From Candidatus Saccharimonadia bacterium (GTDB taxonomy: Bacteria > Patescibacteriota > Saccharimonadia > UBA4664 > JBIOIQ01), in NCBI GenBank assembly GCA_044449985.1, contig JBIOIQ010000003.1, forward strand, positions 10,901 through 74,900: a stretch of DNA of 64,000 nt, read 5' to 3'. This document shows positions 5,226 through 49,631 of the stretch, one piece after another. Each line of letters opens with the position of its first letter. Within the stretch, counting starts at the first letter, position 1. Below the pieces are notes generated by a model. The model worked only from the letters and a program-made list of their open reading frames with translations. It ran no database searches and had not been told where the DNA came from. Both the position numbers and the translations under genes were made by a program.

Positions 5226-5971
5226 TAACTCGAGCCTCCTGCCAAAGGTTGGGGTGGAGTTTTTCCTTCGCCCTTGGTCACGACTGCCGATTGGAGTTGG
5301 GCCGGATCTATAAGTTTTTCATTTTGAGCGGCTTCGGGATTGTAGGAGGCATAATAGAGATCAATTAATTCTTGAGAGTTAAGCGGAATTGCCCGGAGTC
5401 CCATTTGCGCCAGTCCAGCCGAAACCAGTTGGACCCTTTGCGCCAGCTCATTCTTCGCTCGTTCAAAATCGGCGGCTCCAACAGTTACAACCGGGGTAGG
5501 TTTAAAAATGTTCCCCAGACCCGTCACAATATTCGTCTTTGTTGGATCAATTTGAGGGAAAAATGGGACAACTACGAAAAATTGTTTGTCCATGATATTT
5601 ACCTCGTCAACGAGACCTTTAATATTGGCGATGTAATCGTCCATCAGGCCGGCCAGTAATTGATTGTCTTGATCAGTTCTTTTTTTACCAAGATTTTCAA
5701 TATAGGCATCAAGATCAATGCGTCTTGATTTAATGATGATTTGGAGAGGAAAATGAAGAGAATTTAAAAATCCCTGATAAGCAAACTCAACCGCATCCTG
5801 TTCCTGAGCACTCATGAGATCAAAGTTTATCGCGCTCGAAAGAATTACGGCCCGAAGGCTGCCATCTCGCATGACGACAATGCCGTCTTTTATTTCGGAT
5901 ATGAGTAAGCTACCCTGAGTACTCTTAAGGTTAGTGGCGGGTTGAGCAGGTTGATTAACAGGTTGAGCCAT
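5225..5971 (-). CDS. Candidate detached N-terminal domain of a long Gram-positive-type VirB4 (split VirB4), otherwise hypothetical
   Basis: 248-aa ORF whose stop overlaps the virB4 ATG (TAATG, 5227-5223). Segment DGIVVMRDGSLRAVILSSAINFDLMSAQEQDAVEFAYQGFLNSLHFPLQIIIKS resembles, from my memory of the family, the extreme N-terminus of the ~800-aa VirB4/ConE/Tn916-Orf16-type ATPases. 248 + 625 aa adds up to that length. Confidence 0.5.
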   Translation of the reverse strand: MAQPVNQPAQPATNLKSTQGSLLISEIKDGIVVMRDGSLRAVILSSAINFDLMSAQEQDAVEFAYQGFLNSLHFPLQIIIKSRRIDLDAYIENLGKKRTDQDNQLLAGLMDDYIANIKGLVDEVNIMDKQFFVVVPFFPQIDPTKTNIVTGLGNIFKPTPVVTVGAADFERAKNELAQRVQLVSAGLAQMGLRAIPLNSQELIDLYYASYNPEAAQNEKLIDPAQLQSAVVTKGEGKTPPQPLAGGSS

Positions 5972-35728: not shown

Positions 35729-37072
35729 ATGAATTTTATAGAAACAGTCTTTAAAGCCTACGATATCCGTGGGCTCGTTGGCAGCGAACTTACGAATGAT
35801 TTAGCTCTCGCTGTTGGCCGAGGTTTCGCGGATTTTTTGCCAGATGAGGGTCCAGTGGCAGTCGGATACGATATGCGCCCTGATTCGAAAGCGTTAGCCG
35901 AACAGCTCAGAAAGGGCATCGTTGCTCAAGGTCGAGATGTTATTGATATCGGTGAAGTTTCCTCGGATATGATCTATTTCGCGACGGGATTTCTGGAAGC
36001 GGCCGGAGGAGCGATGGTCACTGCGAGTCATAATCCCGGGCAATATAACGGCATGAAATTATGCGGGCGATTAGCGTCCGGAATCAGTATTGATACCGGG
36101 TTAGGGCAGATTCGCGACACGATCAAGAGCGAAACTTTTAAAAAGAACGTGAGCGTTGGGACGATAACCAAGCAAGACATCACTGAAGACTGGGTGGATC
36201 ATGCTCTCTCCTTCGTCAATGCCAAAGCCTGGAAACCGTTTCGAATAGCAGTTGACGCCGGCGATGGTATGGCCGGCAAGATTTTTCCTCGTATCGAGTC
36301 AAAAATACCACTCTCGGTTTACGGCATGTACTTTAAACTAGACGGGACATTTCCTAATCATCCGGCAAATCCCATGTTGCCGGCCAATGTTGCTGCTGAA
36401 TCCGCCGAAATTGTCCGAAATAAGTTCGATTTTGGAATCGCCTTTGATGGTGATGGAGACCGCGCTTTTTTACTCGATGAAAACGGTCAAGAGATTAGCG
36501 CCAGTATTCTAGGTGCTATCTTAGTCGAGCATTTTCTAAAAGAGAATCCGGGAGCGACCATTTTATATAACGCGGTTTGTAGTCATATCCTGCCCGATAC
36601 TATCAAATTACTCGGAGGTGTGCCGCAGCGAACCAAAGTCGGCCATAGCTATATCAAGCCGGATATGCGGAAATACTCGGCTCCTTTTGCCGCCGAAGCT
36701 TCGGGTCATTTTTACTTTCGAGATAATTTTAATGCTGATTCAGGCCTAATTGCGGCGCTCGTTGCAATTGAAGTCTTAAATAACTCCGGACTGCCGTTAT
36801 CCCAGCTGGCCGCAAAATATCATAAATACTCTAACTCCGGGGAAATTAACTTAACCGTGACCGATAAAACCGAGGTCCTTGAGAAAGTTACTCAAGCATT
36901 TCCGGATGGTGAGCAGGATAATCTGGACGGACTTACAATTAGTTACCCGAATTGGTGGTTTAATATCCGCGGCAGTAATACCGAACCGTTGCTTCGTCTC
37001 AACATCGAAGCTGACCGAGACGCAGTATTAGCTGAAAAACAAGCCCAACTGCTGGCTTTAATTAAGGGTTGA
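35729..37072 (+). CDS. Phosphomannomutase/phosphoglucomutase
   Basis: 447-aa ORF with active-site loop TASHNPGQYNGMK, metal loop FDGDGDR and the sugar-binding region GHSYIK. Confidence 0.9.
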   Translation: MNFIETVFKAYDIRGLVGSELTNDLALAVGRGFADFLPDEGPVAVGYDMRPDSKALAEQLRKGIVAQGRDVIDIGEVSSDMIYFATGFLEAAGGAMVTASHNPGQYNGMKLCGRLASGISIDTGLGQIRDTIKSETFKKNVSVGTITKQDITEDWVDHALSFVNAKAWKPFRIAVDAGDGMAGKIFPRIESKIPLSVYGMYFKLDGTFPNHPANPMLPANVAAESAEIVRNKFDFGIAFDGDGDRAFLLDENGQEISASILGAILVEHFLKENPGATILYNAVCSHILPDTIKLLGGVPQRTKVGHSYIKPDMRKYSAPFAAEASGHFYFRDNFNADSGLIAALVAIEVLNNSGLPLSQLAAKYHKYSNSGEINLTVTDKTEVLEKVTQAFPDGEQDNLDGLTISYPNWWFNIRGSNTEPLLRLNIEADRDAVLAEKQAQLLALIKG

Positions 37073-37470
37073 TCGAACTTCTGATTTCGCTTAATCTGAT
37101 TGCACGCGAATGCACCTTTTTTTCTAAACTCTTTTTAGAAAGGAGTAGTGAAACCGTGGCGAAGATTAGCTACGCACTGCTTGCCAGGCTAGCGAGTAAA
37201 ACCGGGGATGATCCCGATCTCACGAAGCTCTCGAGGGCCGATGATGCGGACGAGATAGAGGAAATTATGGTCAGCGACCCCGAATTTCATGCCCTACTCG
37301 TGCGTACGTTCAAAATTGCCAGACGTAGCGTTACCCGGTCCCATCCGCTCGATTATCAAGATATGGGTAATCTTGATATCAATCTCGTCCGAGGACTAAG
37401 AATCGTGGAAGTTGCCGTGGCCTTAGCCGGTGCCATGTGGTTATCCCACCGCTTCCATTCGAGCGAATAA
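37069..37470 (+). CDS. Hypothetical protein (start uncertain; GTG 37156 behind an AAGGAG is an alternative)
   Basis: 133-aa track ORF with a TTG start overlapping the PMM stop. I recognised no family. A terminator follows. Confidence 0.4.
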   Translation: MIELLISLNLIARECTFFSKLFLERSSETVAKISYALLARLASKTGDDPDLTKLSRADDADEIEEIMVSDPEFHALLVRTFKIARRSVTRSHPLDYQDMGNLDINLVRGLRIVEVAVALAGAMWLSHRFHSSE

Positions 37471-37949: not shown

Positions 37950-39614
37950 ATGGCAAAAAAGATTTTCTATGACGATGAAGCTAGAGCGCGAGTTTTAGCC
38001 GGTGCGAAAGAACTTTATGACGCGGTCAAGGTCACGATGGGGCCGAAAGGTCGCAATGTGGTAATTAGTAAAAGTTATGGTGGACCCACGGTCACTCATG
38101 ATGGCGTAACGGTTGCGAAAGCGATTGAAATTGACGAGAATCGCAAAGAAGAATCAACCCTCGGAAAAGGGGTTGGCGCCGAACTGGTCAAACAAGCGGC
38201 CAGCAAAACCAATGATACCGTCGGTGATGGCACTACCACTGCCACCATCCTGACTTACCTGATCTTAAAAGAAGCCAATCGCTTAATCGCGGCCGGTCAT
38301 AATCCGATGGATCTGCGTAAAGGCCTTGATTCGGCTGCCGAAGAAGTACTGGGCAAAGTCGACGGAATGGCCGAAAAGATCTCTGGTAACAAGGAGAAAA
38401 CTGCTCAGGTAGCGACGGTCTCAGCTGGGGATCCGGAAATTGGCAAGTTGATAGCGGACGTGATTGAAGCTGTCGGCGAAGAGGGCTCAGTAACGGTCGA
38501 GCAATCTCAAACATTAGGCCTAGAAAAAGAAATCGTTGAAGGTTTTAAGCTTGATCGCGGCTACGTCAGCACCTATATGGTGACGGATACTGCTCGCATG
38601 GAAGCTTCTTACGAGAAGCCGCTGATCATGATTACCGATAAGAAAATCAGCTCAATCCAAGATATTTTGCCCTTACTTGAGAAAATTGCTCAGAGTGGCA
38701 AGAAAGAGTTGGTCATGATTGCTGAAGACGTTGAAGGTGATGCTCTTGCAAATCTGGTCCTAAATCGTTTGAAAGGGGTCTTTAATACCCTGGCGATTAA
38801 AGCTCCCAGCTTCGGCGATCGCCGCAAAGCAATACTCGAAGACATTGCAGTCTTAACCGGTGCCAGTGTTATTTCGGACGAGCAAGGAATTACCTTTGAA
38901 AACGCCGGCCTTGAAGTTCTAGGCAGCGCTCGCAAAGTAATTGCCGATAAAGACAATACCACCATTATTGAGGGTTATGGGGACGAGGGGGAAGTCAAGG
39001 GTCGAGTCGCTCAATTAAAAGCTCAAATTGAGAATGCAACGAGTGAGTTTGAGAAAGAAAAGCTGGAAGAGCGACTGGCTGCTTTATCGGGAAAAGTTGC
39101 GGTTATTAAAGTCGGTGGAGCAACTGAAACCGAAATCGAAGAGAAGAAATTCCGAGTCGATGACGCGGTTGCTGCGACCAAGGCGGCCGTGGCTGAAGGG
39201 ATTGTGCCGGGAGGCGGAGTGACTTTAGTCGACTTGTCGAAAACCATCAACCTAGACGACGCTAAAGTTACAGATGCGATCGCTGCCGGAAGAATGATCT
39301 TAAAGGAAGCGCTACTACATCCGTTCCGCCAACTCATGCAAAATGCGGGGCTAAATCAGGAAGAAAAACTTTCGAAGGTGCTGGCAAGTAATGCACTTGG
39401 TATGGGTTTTGACGTCAACCACCCGCAAGATTTGATTAATCTCAAAACTGTCGGAATAGTTGATCCTGCCAAAGTTACCAGGGAAGCAATTGTCAACGCA
39501 GTTTCAATCGCTGGAACGGCTATGACGATGGGAGCATTAGTAGTCGATATTCCGGAGGATAAAGCGCCGGCCATGCCGGGTGGTATGGGCGGTGGAATGG
39601 GAATGGACTACTAA
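37950..39614 (+). CDS. groL: Chaperonin GroEL
   Basis: 554-aa ORF with AAVEEGIVPGGG-type motif (AAVAEGIVPGGG), GDGTTTATIL and a C-terminal GGMGGGMGMDY tail. Confidence 0.97.
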   Translation: MAKKIFYDDEARARVLAGAKELYDAVKVTMGPKGRNVVISKSYGGPTVTHDGVTVAKAIEIDENRKEESTLGKGVGAELVKQAASKTNDTVGDGTTTATILTYLILKEANRLIAAGHNPMDLRKGLDSAAEEVLGKVDGMAEKISGNKEKTAQVATVSAGDPEIGKLIADVIEAVGEEGSVTVEQSQTLGLEKEIVEGFKLDRGYVSTYMVTDTARMEASYEKPLIMITDKKISSIQDILPLLEKIAQSGKKELVMIAEDVEGDALANLVLNRLKGVFNTLAIKAPSFGDRRKAILEDIAVLTGASVISDEQGITFENAGLEVLGSARKVIADKDNTTIIEGYGDEGEVKGRVAQLKAQIENATSEFEKEKLEERLAALSGKVAVIKVGGATETEIEEKKFRVDDAVAATKAAVAEGIVPGGGVTLVDLSKTINLDDAKVTDAIAAGRMILKEALLHPFRQLMQNAGLNQEEKLSKVLASNALGMGFDVNHPQDLINLKTVGIVDPAKVTREAIVNAVSIAGTAMTMGALVVDIPEDKAPAMPGGMGGGMGMDY

Positions 39615-39651
39615 GTTAAATACAAGTAAAGACTCACAAGTTAGAAGGTAC

Positions 39652-39680
39652 AAAAAAGAGACAATAAGTGTCTCTTTTTT
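39652..39680 (+). terminator. Rho-independent terminator of groESL
   Basis: AAAAAAGAGACA-ATAAG-TGTCTCTTTTTT. Confidence 0.8.
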
Positions 39681-39704
39681 GGGTATTGAATAATTGCATC
39701 TGCA

Positions 39705-39739
39705 GGCAGGGTGGACACCAAGTTGGCGTCCACCCTGCC
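39705..39739 (-). terminator. 12-bp GC-rich hairpin downstream of the 39748..40080 gene (terminator-like, no U run)
   Basis: GGCAGGGTGGAC-(11 nt)-GTCCACCCTGCC. Confidence 0.4.
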
Positions 39740-39747
39740 AGAAGGAT

Positions 39748-40080
39748 TTAGAGGAACGGGAATCCGTCCGCAGGAGGGAACCAGCGCTCGCGTTTTGGCA
39801 GTTGAATTTCACCGTAGGGGGCCTCGGCGGCTTGGTAGCAGTTCAAATGCCAACATTCGTGCCGAACAAACTCGCGCCGCTGGGGCTCAATACCCGGGGG
39901 CAAGACGTTGGTCCAGATCGTGACGAAGACGTAGTGTACGGTTTGACCATTCTTGCCGGTGATCGTTGCCGGGTCGTATCCGCAGTGGGAAGATGCGCAG
40001 ATTTCGGGTGTCGCCGGCTCACCTTCGAGCTCTTTTACCTCCAGATCGGCCATGAGCTTTTGCGGAAGAGATGTGTTCAT
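39748..40080 (-). CDS. Small HExxH-motif protein (putative minimal zinc metallopeptidase-like), hypothetical
   Basis: I trimmed to ATG 40080, which is preceded by a GAGGAG SD. The 110-aa sequence is MNTSLPQKLMADLEVKELEGEPATPEICASSHCGYDP...EFVRHECWHLNCYQAAEAPYGEIQL, containing HECWH. The DNA is G+C-rich: I counted 36/60 at 39841-39900 and 38/60 at 39961-40020. Confidence 0.5.
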   Translation of the reverse strand: MNTSLPQKLMADLEVKELEGEPATPEICASSHCGYDPATITGKNGQTVHYVFVTIWTNVLPPGIEPQRREFVRHECWHLNCYQAAEAPYGEIQLPKRERWFPPADGFPFL

Positions 40081-40348
40081 TGCTCCTCTTTTCGTAAGTC
40101 GGCGGGGCTTCTTCGGATATTTCACCGTGGGGATTACCGGCACCTTCGTAACATTCCGGGTGGTAATTCAAAACTGCTTGCCAAACTCCCTTTTTGTAGA
40201 GGTTGACGATTATGCGGCGCGGATGCTGTCTGGCGATGAACTTGACTGGCTCACCACAGGCTTCGCAGTCCGCGTAATTCCCGGCGTCTATCTGATGCGA
40301 GACTACCCGAGTTTTTCTTGCGTGCGTACGCGTTGTTGTCACCACCAT
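40019..40348 (-). CDS. Small zinc-ribbon-like protein (CxxC...HxxC), hypothetical
   Basis: 109-aa ORF, ...DAGNYADCEACGEPVKFIARQHPRRIIVNLYKKGVWQAVLNYHPECYEG... Its 3' end overlaps the next gene by 62 nt in another frame. Confidence 0.45.
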   Translation of the reverse strand: MVVTTTRTHARKTRVVSHQIDAGNYADCEACGEPVKFIARQHPRRIIVNLYKKGVWQAVLNYHPECYEGAGNPHGEISEEAPPTYEKRSNEHISSAKAHGRSGGKRARR

Positions 40349-40447
40349 AATCCCTTCTCGAGGTGGGCGTGACGCCTAATATAAGCGTTTTTTTGCAACC
40401 TGTAAAGGGCTAAAGTATGGCATAATTGGGACAAAAGGAGGCTGCAA

Positions 40448-41485
40448 ATGCTAGACGATCAAGGGTACGTTACTAATTTGGATCCTTCCAATGCGCTGGG
40501 AATCATCGCAGCTCAACCGGCACAGTTAAGGCTTAAGCTAACTTTTTCGTCATTTGAGCTAGATATCGATAATATCGTGGTAACCGGTATGGGTGGCTCA
40601 GCTCTGGGAGCAGAGTTTATCCGCTCGTACCTGAGCGATCGATTGCCGGTGCCATTGAGCATTGTTCGGGATTACACGTTACCGGCTTTTGTGGGTCCAA
40701 AAACGCTGCTAATCGCATCAAGTTACTCCGGAAACACCGAAGAAACTATTACGGCACTGGCGCAAGCCAAGCAGGTAAAAGCTAAAATAGTCGTCCAGAG
40801 CTCCGGAGGAAAATTGGCTGAAATAGCTCAAGCCGAAGGGTATCCGCATATCTTGTTCCCAGGTGGTTTTCAGCCAAGACTGGCAGTATTATTTCAGGTT
40901 CGAGCTCTGGCTGTTATATTCGAGTCGGCTGGTCTGGTCAGTGGGATTTTGGAAGAGCTTGAAATGGCGGCGAACTGGGTCGAAGGTAAAATCGGCAAAT
41001 GGGTGCTTGAGTCACCAGAATCTGACAACCCGGCCAAACAATTGGCTGAGCATTTGGTTGGTAAAACAATCGTGGTATATGGTGGCCCAACGCTTTGGCT
41101 CCCCACCATGAAATGGAAAATCGATTTTAACGAAAATTCAAAAAATGTGGCTTCGTTCTATCATTTGCCCGAATTTAGTCACAATGAATATACCGGTTGG
41201 CTGTTTCCAAATACCAAAAATATTGGTGTGATCGAGCTCATGTCGAACCTCGATGTTCCCCATATTAGCCGTAGGTTTCGCATTTCCAATCGATTATTAT
41301 CCGGTAAAATGCCAAAACCATTTATAGTGAGCGCCGAAGGGGAAACCAAACTCCAGCAAATGCTCTGGACCGTTTTACTAGGAGATTTTGTAAGTGCATA
41401 TCTCGCATTCTTAAATGGTATCGACCCAACGCCGGTCAATTTAGTGGAAAGTTTAAAAAAAGAACTCGCGAAGGAGGACTCATGA
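40448..41485 (+). CDS. pgi: Bifunctional phosphoglucose/phosphomannose isomerase (SIS-domain PGI/PMI family)
   Basis: 345-aa ORF with an AAAGGAGG SD and SIS pattern VVTGMGGSALGAEF...LLIASSYSGNTEET. Its length and layout match the small archaeal/bacterial PGI/PMI family. Confidence 0.8.
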   Translation: MLDDQGYVTNLDPSNALGIIAAQPAQLRLKLTFSSFELDIDNIVVTGMGGSALGAEFIRSYLSDRLPVPLSIVRDYTLPAFVGPKTLLIASSYSGNTEETITALAQAKQVKAKIVVQSSGGKLAEIAQAEGYPHILFPGGFQPRLAVLFQVRALAVIFESAGLVSGILEELEMAANWVEGKIGKWVLESPESDNPAKQLAEHLVGKTIVVYGGPTLWLPTMKWKIDFNENSKNVASFYHLPEFSHNEYTGWLFPNTKNIGVIELMSNLDVPHISRRFRISNRLLSGKMPKPFIVSAEGETKLQQMLWTVLLGDFVSAYLAFLNGIDPTPVNLVESLKKELAKEDS

Positions 41486-48707: not shown

Positions 48708-49009
48708 GTCGCTACTAGCCTAACGAAGGGAGAACGACACAAACAAAACTTGCGCCTTGGAAGTTTTTTCAAAATAGGCGCAGCTGTAAAAAGGTTTCTC
48801 GGAAAAATGATTTTTCTGAGTTAAAGCTATCGGCGCTCTCGTCCGGACAGGTGTCCAGAGAGGTATCGATTTGATACCAGTTGTTCTCGCGAGCGTAGCG
48901 ACCGGTTCGACGTACCGGATTGCCTTTGTCGATAGCGCCTGCATCCAAGACCAACCTGAAAGACCACGAGGACCAACCAGGTCCGCAGCGTGTTATCAAG
49001 GAGGAACAG
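48708..49009 (+). promoter_or_regulatory. Long (~300 nt) hairpin-rich untranslated leader upstream of the transglycosylase-like gene; candidate cis-regulatory RNA of unknown class
   Basis: I accept no credible ORF here; the two track ORFs in this stretch are both minus-strand and both rejected. Local hairpins include TGCGCC...GGCGCA, CTCGGAAAAA-TGA-TTTTTCTGAG, GGTATC-GATTT-GATACC, CCGGT-TCGACGT-ACCGG and GGACC-AACCA-GGTCC. The leader ends at an AAGGAGG SD. Confidence 0.35.
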
Positions 49010-49516
49010 ATGCGGCCTAACGCCGTAAACAGAATTATTGTGGGACTGGCAACAATCCTGACTACCACGGTTTTAAGTGGGGTTGTCGGAGTTGGAGCCA
49101 TGACCGCAAGCAGCGGGACTTTTCCCATACACCTCGCTGCAGCCGAAGTTCCGTTGCCGTCCGTTCCCAACGCGACAGTGCCTTCGGTGAGTAGTCCGGA
49201 AACTCCTCCGCTTGCTTTTGTGAGCTGGTATACCGAAGAAGCCTCCCGGTGGCAAACGACCGGGAACTGCATAATCTTCGGCAACCAGGTGTACTCACAT
49301 TGGGGTGAGTCAAATGGGAATCCGACTGCTCAAAATCCGATCTCGTCGGCTTCCGGCTTGTTTGGATTTCTCGACTCCACTTGGAATCACTTCGGTGGAT
49401 ACGTTCATGCCAGACAAGCTCCACCCATTATCCAGTGGGTCCGTTTCTTCCAGGTCTTTGCAGACGGGAAGGGTGCGAGTAATTGGAGAGGAGACGGATG
49501 CGGATACGGAACGTAA
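49010..49516 (+). CDS. Secreted transglycosylase-like (Rpf/SLT-like) protein
   Basis: I trimmed to ATG 49010 behind an AAGGAGG SD. It has signal/TM IIVGLATILTTTVLSGVVGVGAM. The C-terminal pattern GESNGNPTAQNPISSASGLFGFLDSTWNHFGG...W..DGCG parallels the Rpf-type transglycosylase-like motif (C/G)ESGGN...GLFQF..STW...W..C. The DNA is G+C-rich: I counted 36/60 at 49081-49140. Confidence 0.65.
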   Translation: MRPNAVNRIIVGLATILTTTVLSGVVGVGAMTASSGTFPIHLAAAEVPLPSVPNATVPSVSSPETPPLAFVSWYTEEASRWQTTGNCIIFGNQVYSHWGESNGNPTAQNPISSASGLFGFLDSTWNHFGGYVHARQAPPIIQWVRFFQVFADGKGASNWRGDGCGYGT

Positions 49517-49631
49517 GGAAACGTTCCTAGATCTTGTTGGCTCTGCCGGCGGGGAGACTCCCCGCCGGCAGAGATAGCAGTAGTGAAATTTATGAATTCA
49601 ATCTAGTAAAACTAATGTAAACCGCTTATGA

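Follow-up and report, generated by a model that had tools for sequence, protein, structure and literature searches.

A pair of paralogous genes for small putative zinc-finger proteins of an undescribed family, probably acquired, between groEL and pgi in a Saccharimonadia genome

Several described zinc-binding domains offer points of comparison for the two small proteins considered here. The classical zinc ribbon consists of two C-x2-C knuckles on β-hairpins; the C1, or cysteine-rich, domains of proteins such as Munc13-1, RAF, PKC theta and STAC3 are small, zinc-stabilised and bind two zinc ions through an H-x12-C-x2-C... motif; the PARP-type finger (PF00645) of the nick sensors PARP1 and DNA ligase III follows the pattern C-x2-C-x28-30-H-x2-C; and zincin metallopeptidases carry an HExxH string. 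In sequence, the likeness lies with an unnamed family of small proteins from metagenome-assembled genomes (MAGs) of Acidimicrobiales and Actinobacteria (VGO92_09560, VE990_12705, VMY34_04420 and JOZ37_06185). Here, we analyzed a stretch of 64,000 nucleotides, hereafter the window, from a Saccharimonadia genome of 46% G+C (Candidatus Saccharimonadia bacterium, contig JBIOIQ010000003.1, positions 10,901 to 74,900), in which a G+C-rich islet at 39690–40380 lies between groEL and a pgi-like gene and holds two overlapping minus-strand open reading frames (ORFs), A and B. We propose that they are a pair of paralogous genes for small putative zinc-finger proteins of this undescribed family, and that the pair was probably acquired.

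The family was found with a profile of the A and B cores, which was run against 1.84 × 10^9 representative proteins with no word filter. Around 20 small proteins were matched end to end (E-values from 8e-8 to 1e-3), and a follow-up search with a family profile returned at least 1,123 clusters (90% identity). Family proteins are 60–130 aa long, those listed being single-domain proteins of 68–121 aa, and every member with an organism name derives from Acidimicrobiales or ‘Actinobacteria’ MAGs, in a collection where taxon labels are almost absent. A word-indexed search of 5.8 × 10^9 proteins with A or B alone recovered the genome's own entries only. Pfam, PHROGs, NCBIfam and PADLOC were silent, at E-values up to 1, on A, on B, on the two long plus-strand ORFs opposite them and on the family members; a Pfam search with A, B and ten family members (E up to 1) gave no match, the listed members held no Pfam domain, and PDB sequence searches with A, with the A and B profile and with the family profile gave no match either. 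The alignment of the matches yielded a domain of approximately 65 residues with the consensus SRAVxRxIEPGNxAxCxxCGxPVKFxARxxxxQVIANVYxxGxWxRVEHFHxxCYxxAGxPYGE and the signature C-x2-C...W..VEHFH-x2-CY..AG.PYGE, in which, following the numbering of ORF A, residues C28, C31, K36, F37, N49, Y51, W56, H63, C66, Y67 and P73 are invariant.

As an independent test, a hidden Markov model (HMM) was built from 21 family members, leaving out A and B, and all 690 six-frame ORFs of the window were scored with it. ORF A reached 101 bits, covering HMM positions 8–93 out of 98, and ORF B reached 23.9 bits (i-E 1.2e-6 among 690 ORFs), compared with 7.9 bits for the third-best ORF. Since both frames match an independent family model, the minus-strand ORFs can be regarded as genuine coding sequences and the plus-strand ORFs as their shadows. 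This is in line with the two-gene minus-strand module of the original prediction, as these two frames were the sole family matches of the 690 ORFs and no ORF of the plus strand, where the real genes might otherwise have lain, scored against the model.

ORF A presents all invariant residues, with C28, C31, H63 and C66 in the ligand positions, and lacks the residues S-R-A-V and R-V-E-H that are usual in the family; over 71 core positions, it is 38–54% identical to all family subgroups. It is a canonical, full-length family member, basic and with a Lys/Arg-rich tail. In ORF B, the corresponding ligands are C28, C33, H78 and C81, the first knuckle being C-x4-C. B retains the conserved Asn, Y67, P73 and an aromatic residue at W56, lacks K36, F37 and Y51, and combines an insertion of approximately 15 residues and a diverged N-terminal half with a preserved C-terminal motif and a net acidic charge. 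The relationship can also be seen in direct comparisons, as BLASTP aligned A with B at an E-value of 6e-4, with a local score reached by 5 out of 5000 shuffles, and tblastn with A against the window matched the C-terminus of B. Both proteins follow the collinear pattern C-x2/4-C-G-x-[DE]-P ... W/F ... [YW]-H-x2-C-Y-x2-A-x2-P-x-G-E-I, and a direct repeat in the DNA (D1, Table 1) encodes the P-[HY]-G-E-I / C-Y motif common to the two. As judged from these alignments, B is a divergent paralogue within the family, and the two small proteins are thus paralogues that belong to one undescribed family. With the unnamed proteins of Acidimicrobiales and Actinobacteria, A has the entire domain in common, and B the four ligand positions together with W/F..E.[FW]H-x2-CY..A..PYGE; in contigs of the Acidimicrobiia type, the gene is single and follows an ABC-F gene, whereas in the window it forms a tandem pair between groEL and pgi. 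Of the zinc ribbon with a protease partner that had originally been suggested, the notion of a pair survived in another form: the data fit two paralogues of one family, each with four predicted ligands.

The fold of ORF A was modelled with AlphaFold2. With an alignment of 22 sequences, the predicted local distance difference test score (pLDDT) was 82.8, and above 90 over residues 11–80, whereas the model obtained without alignment was poor (pLDDT 50). Strands were predicted at residues 14–19, 25–28, 34–36, 44–52 and 55–62 and a helix at 64–69, with C-x2-C located between strands and H-x2-C where the helix begins. An order of strands, knuckle and helix of this sort is typical of treble-clef zinc fingers, which the arrangement predicted for A resembles, the label being drawn from secondary-structure order only. 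We infer that the domain would bind one Zn2+ via Cys-Cys-His-Cys (CCHC) ligands. The second ligand pair of A, being an H-x2-C at the start of a helix, would fit a treble-clef arrangement better than a zinc ribbon.

The treble-clef label has to be set against the outcome of the structural comparisons, since Foldseek returned no significant PDB neighbour for the A model. Its best matches were the C1 domains named above, with E-values of 0.66–3.3, TM-scores of 0.24–0.45 and root-mean-square deviations (rmsd) above 5 Å, which is not significant, and these domains differ from the family, where four ligand positions only are present. The best structural neighbours came from BFVD and were small phage proteins with no annotation, i.e., A0A8S5SH99 of Siphoviridae sp. 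ctBCr48, A0A6J5KMD6 of an uncultured Caudovirales and A0A249XN72 of Arthrobacter phage GurgleFerb (E-values of 7e-3 to 0.15, probability 0.97–1.0, rmsd 2.4–3.3 Å over 56–60 columns, 15–20% identity). The PARP-type finger was also tried. A can be written as C-x2-C-x31-H-x2-C with Y-H..C-Y, hhalign placed its ligands in register with those of the PARP-type finger, and in each of the two, aromatic residues flank the H-x2-C pair ([WY]-H-x2-C-[FY]). This candidate was rejected, as the hhalign probability was 0.8–2.7%, Pfam was silent and no finger of PARP or ligase III was present among the top 50 Foldseek matches in PDB; the likeness is a resemblance of pattern only.

With regard to the origin of the pair, we analyzed the composition of the islet, the corresponding locus in relatives and the boundaries. 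The flanking genes are both on the plus strand, groES-groEL ending at 39614 and the pgi-like gene, which encodes a SIS-domain protein, starting at 40448. The G+C content of 39690–40380 (0.553) exceeded that of every other 691-bp window in the 64 kb (mean 0.463, standard deviation 0.032), which confirmed the G+C-rich islet that had been predicted between the groESL terminator and pgi. On the left, G+C content jumped from 0.30 at 39641–39700 to 0.55 in windows starting at 39681, past the groEL terminator; on the right, it fell to approximately 0.45 beyond 40360. A recount in steps of 60 bases reproduced the values originally reported (0.60 for 39841–39900 and 0.63 for 39961–40020). At third codon positions, the G+C content (GC3) of ORF B was 0.667 (z 3.5), a value outside the range of all window genes and not attained in any 110-codon chunk (n = 127) of these genes.

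The groEL and pgi genes are adjacent in four of five syntenic relatives of the Saccharimonadales (the fetched loci labelled L001, L003, L015 and L016) and lie within 4.4 kb of each other in the fifth (L004). No gene of the A/B family was present in the fetched groEL-pgi loci of any of the five, whose spacers hold other, mutually conserved content. Moreover, the insert is flanked by an imperfect direct repeat of 14 bp with 12 matches, a similarity reached by 11 out of 5000 shuffles of the two boundary segments. The right copy lies in a stretch that relatives have too, probably the −10 region of pgi. No integrase or transposase was found near the islet. The foreign composition and the absence from the syntenic relatives agree with the horizontal acquisition that had been proposed, and acquisition from a source of higher G+C content is likely.

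The islet is a predicted small minus-strand transcription unit, composed of a promoter-like site, ORF A, ORF B, a G+C-rich hairpin and a bidirectional terminator shared with groEL (Table 1). The sizes and motifs of both ORFs, their overlap and the openness of both frames over 40019–40143 were as originally described, and so were the GAGGAG ahead of ORF B, though merely 2 nt from the ATG, and the long ORFs on the opposite strand (170 and 139 aa). The B frame is open up to 40143/40167. Within the overlap, A encodes its variable basic tail (pLDDT 56–63) and B a leader ahead of its domain. The terminator, as read from its sequence, could stop both the groEL transcript on the plus strand and the A-B transcript on the minus strand. 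The hairpin that had been reported to close the islet is real, with a core of 12 perfect G+C-rich pairs. When folded as plus strand (−33 kcal/mol), its stem is broken by an A.C mismatch, which becomes a G.U pair in the minus-strand RNA and gives 16 contiguous pairs there; this continuity on the minus-strand RNA only argues for action in the A-B transcript. The hairpin has no U-tract, and the 13-bp groEL terminator lies approximately 18 nt farther on. The hairpin is probably a 3′ end stabiliser or the first terminator hairpin of the A-B transcript. We also considered that it could be an imported terminator of actinobacterial style, an idea dropped because another window gene ends with a similar hairpin.

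Table 1. Coordinates of the features of the islet and of family loci in other contigs. Positions refer to the window unless preceded by the label of a fetched contig.
Feature	Position	Strand	Description
Bidirectional intrinsic terminator	39651..39681		13-bp perfect stem (100% complementary), A-run on one side and T-run on the other
Left copy of imperfect direct repeat	39683..39696		14 bp, GTATTGAATAATTG, 12/14
G+C-rich hairpin	39700..39744	-	Arms 39700-39721 and 39723-39744; first base 3 nt past the ORF B stop
ORF B	39748..40080	-	110 aa, HECWH; acidic, pI 5.3; NCBI ACHQUB_01415
Direct repeat D1	39806..39840, paired with 40119-40153		35 nt, 71% identity, 10/10 exact ATTTCACCGT
HECWH (H74-E75-C76-W77-H78) of ORF B	39847..39861	-	Aligns with family V-E-H-F-H
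ORF A	40019..40348	-	109 aa, CEAC...HPEC; basic, pI 9.6; NCBI ACHQUB_01420, there from GTG at 40342
A/B overlap	40019..40080	-	62 nt; A residues 90-109 and B residues 1-21
Shine-Dalgarno-like GAGGAG of ORF B	40083..40088	-	2 nt before ATG, 4 nt from GAGG core
Conserved domain core of ORF A	40115..40309	-	Residues 14-78; five β-strands, then a short helix (predicted by AlphaFold2)
Sigma-70-like promoter of the A-B unit	40378..40406	-	TTTACA-17-TATATT, 10/12 matches; divergent from the pgi promoter
Right copy of direct repeat	40415..40428		14 bp, GTATGGCATAATTG; just before the pgi ribosome-binding site
ABC-F gene, gene of a two-transmembrane protein (no Pfam domain), CCHC gene	L009:3950-6216; L010:3933-6210; L011:3812-6237; L012:3323-5805		In this order
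ABC-F gene, CCHC gene	L024:3297-5315		No two-transmembrane gene

A number of observations speak against the account of an acquired pair of family members. The match of ORF B to the family model is confined to 27 C-terminal positions (HMM positions 57–83); the spacing between GAGGAG and the ATG of B is very short and an overlap of 62 nt is unusual; and the occurrence of a similar G+C-rich hairpin without U-tract behind another window gene means that the hairpin is no mark of foreign origin. The GC3 of ORF A (0.51, z 0.9) is only mildly raised and within one standard deviation of the genome value. All relatives that lack the pair are distant, their pgi products being 54–58% identical to that of the window, and pgi scans of genome and metagenome collections revealed no close relative, the best reaching 58%. 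At 38–54% identity to every subgroup, the core of A points to no particular donor. Finally, three contigs of low G+C content (0.41–0.47), probably CPR-like (candidate phyla radiation), hold more distant members in other genomic locations, in one case adjoining a TruB that is 50–59% identical to the TruB of the window.

The ordinary GC3 of A, the comparison with distant relatives only, the core identities that favour no donor and the low-G+C members would also suit a different history, in which the pair is old and was inherited vertically in the Saccharimonadia lineage, or came from other CPR bacteria, its G+C excess is gene-specific and the other lineages have lost it. We regard this history as unlikely, albeit worth keeping in view. 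It would have to accommodate the GC3 of ORF B, the lack of any homologue in the five syntenic spacers, with their other conserved content, and the direct repeat that brackets the insert.

That A and B are instead the two halves of one gene, split by a frameshift or sequencing error within 40019–40143, had been put forward as an alternative, and the unusually long overlap, the openness of both frames over that interval and the fact that the sequence comes from a MAG could be read in this sense. This idea fails, since A alone spans the family model, B has its own complete set of four ligands, and no two-domain fusion was seen among the at least 1,123 clusters of 60–130 aa. In addition, B has its own ATG with GAGGAG upstream, and nothing but the variable A tail and the B leader falls within the overlap. 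We therefore consider a single split gene very improbable.

Even less credit can be given to a pair made up of a zinc-ribbon protein and a minimal HExxH metalloprotease, whether as toxin and antitoxin, anti-defence factor or regulator and protease, which had been proposed for this locus. The reading draws on the HECWH of ORF B, its sole likeness to the zincin metallopeptidases, and on the genes being small, adjacent and overlapping. In the 21 family members, V-E-H-F-H stands at the corresponding positions, so that the string has its Glu and last His in common with the family and its first His occurs in B alone; moreover, H78 is followed by a Cys three residues on, as an H-x2-C knuckle parallel to H63-x2-C66 of ORF A, and no third zinc ligand or Met-turn could be identified in B. 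Thus, as judged from the family alignment, the HExxH string is a coincidence of a non-conserved His, a family Glu and a putative zinc-ligand His. Since the first His is not conserved and no peptidase model in Pfam, NCBIfam, PADLOC or PHROGs matched B (E up to 1), the metalloprotease reading fails. B is, besides, homologous to the same family as A, and its string differs from that of true zincins in not being kept in homologues. A toxin-antitoxin or anti-defence role likewise found no support, as no toxin or defence model of these libraries matched, no domain of a type II toxin-antitoxin system was present according to Pfam, PADLOC and NCBIfam, and the two products are paralogous to each other.

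The notion that the stretch is a structured non-coding RNA, or that the genes lie on the plus strand and G+C-rich DNA has produced artefactual ORFs on the minus strand, could appeal to the frequent occurrence of RNA genes as G+C-rich islands in A+T-richer genomes, to long ORFs on both strands and to the RNA-like element that relatives seem to have in the same spacer. It can be set aside as next to impossible, because the islet gave no Rfam match (at the gathering cut-off or at E up to 10) and no tRNA or tmRNA with ARAGORN, the element of the relatives is absent from the window, and the minus frames score 101 and 24 bits against an independent protein family, against which the plus-strand ORFs, also without Pfam or PHROG match, do not score.

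Returning to the account of an acquired pair, we examined where the family occurs elsewhere. In five out of six Acidimicrobiia-type contigs (G+C content 0.68–0.70), the sixth being the exception, the family gene directly follows one that encodes an ABC-F ATPase of around 560 aa; in four of those five, a gene for a small protein with two transmembrane segments stands between both, and the genes farther downstream vary (Table 1). The order of ABC-F, two-transmembrane and CCHC genes, often found beside sucA, may constitute a functional unit, as its recurrence suggests. Against giving this neighbourhood much weight stands its absence from the window, and it may reflect no more than synteny within a single class.

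The closest relative of A (P0004/P0148, approximately 50% identity) is encoded in a contig of 0.60 G+C (L023) made up of tightly packed, unidirectional small genes. There (L023:3410-5426), it is located 2 nt after a gene for a 529-aa DpdA-like protein (phrog_887, E 1e-59, annotated as queuine tRNA-ribosyltransferase), and a gene for a 63-aa C2H2-like zinc finger follows 4 nt downstream; ParB-like genes are also present, and the contig looks like a phage or mobile island. The C2H2-like gene (5235–5426) was examined as a counterpart of B and rejected, since it is unrelated to B. A tblastn search with a family member gave no match in 50,697 phage and 72,556 plasmid records, and searches of phage and plasmid collections with A, B and P0148 gave none, or matches at E-values of 0.7–2 only.

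Saccharibacteria live on actinobacterial hosts. In the account that we favour, the pair would have been inserted into the variable groEL-pgi spacer from a source of higher G+C content, either an actinobacterium, the family being common in Acidimicrobiales, or its phage, and the insertion would have duplicated approximately 14 bp of the pgi promoter region. A would be a small nucleic-acid-binding zinc finger, possibly linked to RNA or the ribosome, and B a partner or modulator derived from it. As best guess, then, both may be small zinc fingers that bind nucleic acid or a partner, a suggestion to which the charge contrast between A and B (pI 9.6 vs. 5.3) adds a hint; that A in particular binds nucleic acid is a tentative idea, which we hold to be possible and rather doubtful. 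The link to RNA or the ribosome is brought in because of the recurrent ABC-F neighbour in Acidimicrobiales, a neighbourhood that, by analogy, hints at translation. A bolder version can be imagined, in which the family serves the ABC-F translation ATPase of Acidimicrobiia as a zinc-finger cofactor, an epibiotic Saccharimonadia cell captured the gene from its actinobacterial host or a phage and duplicated it into a basic and an acidic form, and the pair acts on its own or the host's ribosomes or RNA. This would explain the place of the gene directly after the ABC-F gene; we offer it as a long shot.

Some further observations were made along the window and in the relatives. A second G+C-rich stretch was located at 48900–49600 (G+C content 0.53–0.55). 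It contains a plus-strand gene (49010–49516) for a protein of 168 aa with a signal-peptide-like N-terminus, the motif G-L-F-G-F-L-D-S-T-W-N-H-F-G-G and no Pfam match, and the gene is followed by a 15-bp GC hairpin without U-tract, like that of the islet. At 37069–37470, between a phosphomannomutase-like gene and groES, an ORF of 133 aa with a TTG start, for which Pfam gave nothing, and which may or may not be a gene, takes up a somewhat G+C-richer gap (0.50–0.53).

Four of the groEL-pgi spacers of relatives (L001:4920-5085, L003:1080-1262, L015:3200-3380 and L016:2790-2975) contain a putative element of their own. After the groEL terminator, all four show a promoter-like TTGACA-N17-TAnAnT. Downstream of this site come a stem-loop, GTTGTGAG..ACCAACACCA..TCGCAAC, which is conserved and shows some compensatory changes, and then a hairpin of 22–25 bp that varies in sequence among the relatives and keeps its structure. 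The element gave no Rfam match, and has the look of a small RNA or leader not yet described in Saccharimonadales. In the spacer of L001, ARAGORN also predicted a tRNA-Cys (5754–5825; Rfam tRNA score 42.9) with the unusual anticodon ACA (A at position 34), beside a tRNA-Thr(CGT). Lastly, a contig labelled ‘Candidatus Nanoarchaeia archaeon’ (L005, DATIHE010000024.1) encodes a pgi product 58% identical to that of the window and has the same downstream tRNA-Ser(GGA); it is probably a mis-binned or mislabelled Saccharimonadales contig.

Taken together, the locus probably represents a modest insertion, made up of two genes from an uncatalogued family, and is ordinary beyond the following points. Two orphan hypothetical proteins become members of a sizeable family that is listed in no domain library, and with its at least 1,123 clusters, a fold predicted with confidence and no significant counterpart in solved structures, the family is a candidate for a new domain entry. 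A tempting, wrong metalloprotease call is removed, and ORF B provides an example of an HExxH string arising inside a zinc knuckle. Small modules of mostly hypothetical proteins have reportedly been gained in Absconditabacteria and Gracilibacteria, related CPR lineages (Jaffe et al., PMC8406219). The A-B pair would add a concrete, delimited case in which a reduced CPR genome has taken up a small foreign module, with a possible tie to actinobacteria or phages. For the family as a whole, the ABC-F gene that recurs beside it in Acidimicrobiia offers a lead to function that can be tested.

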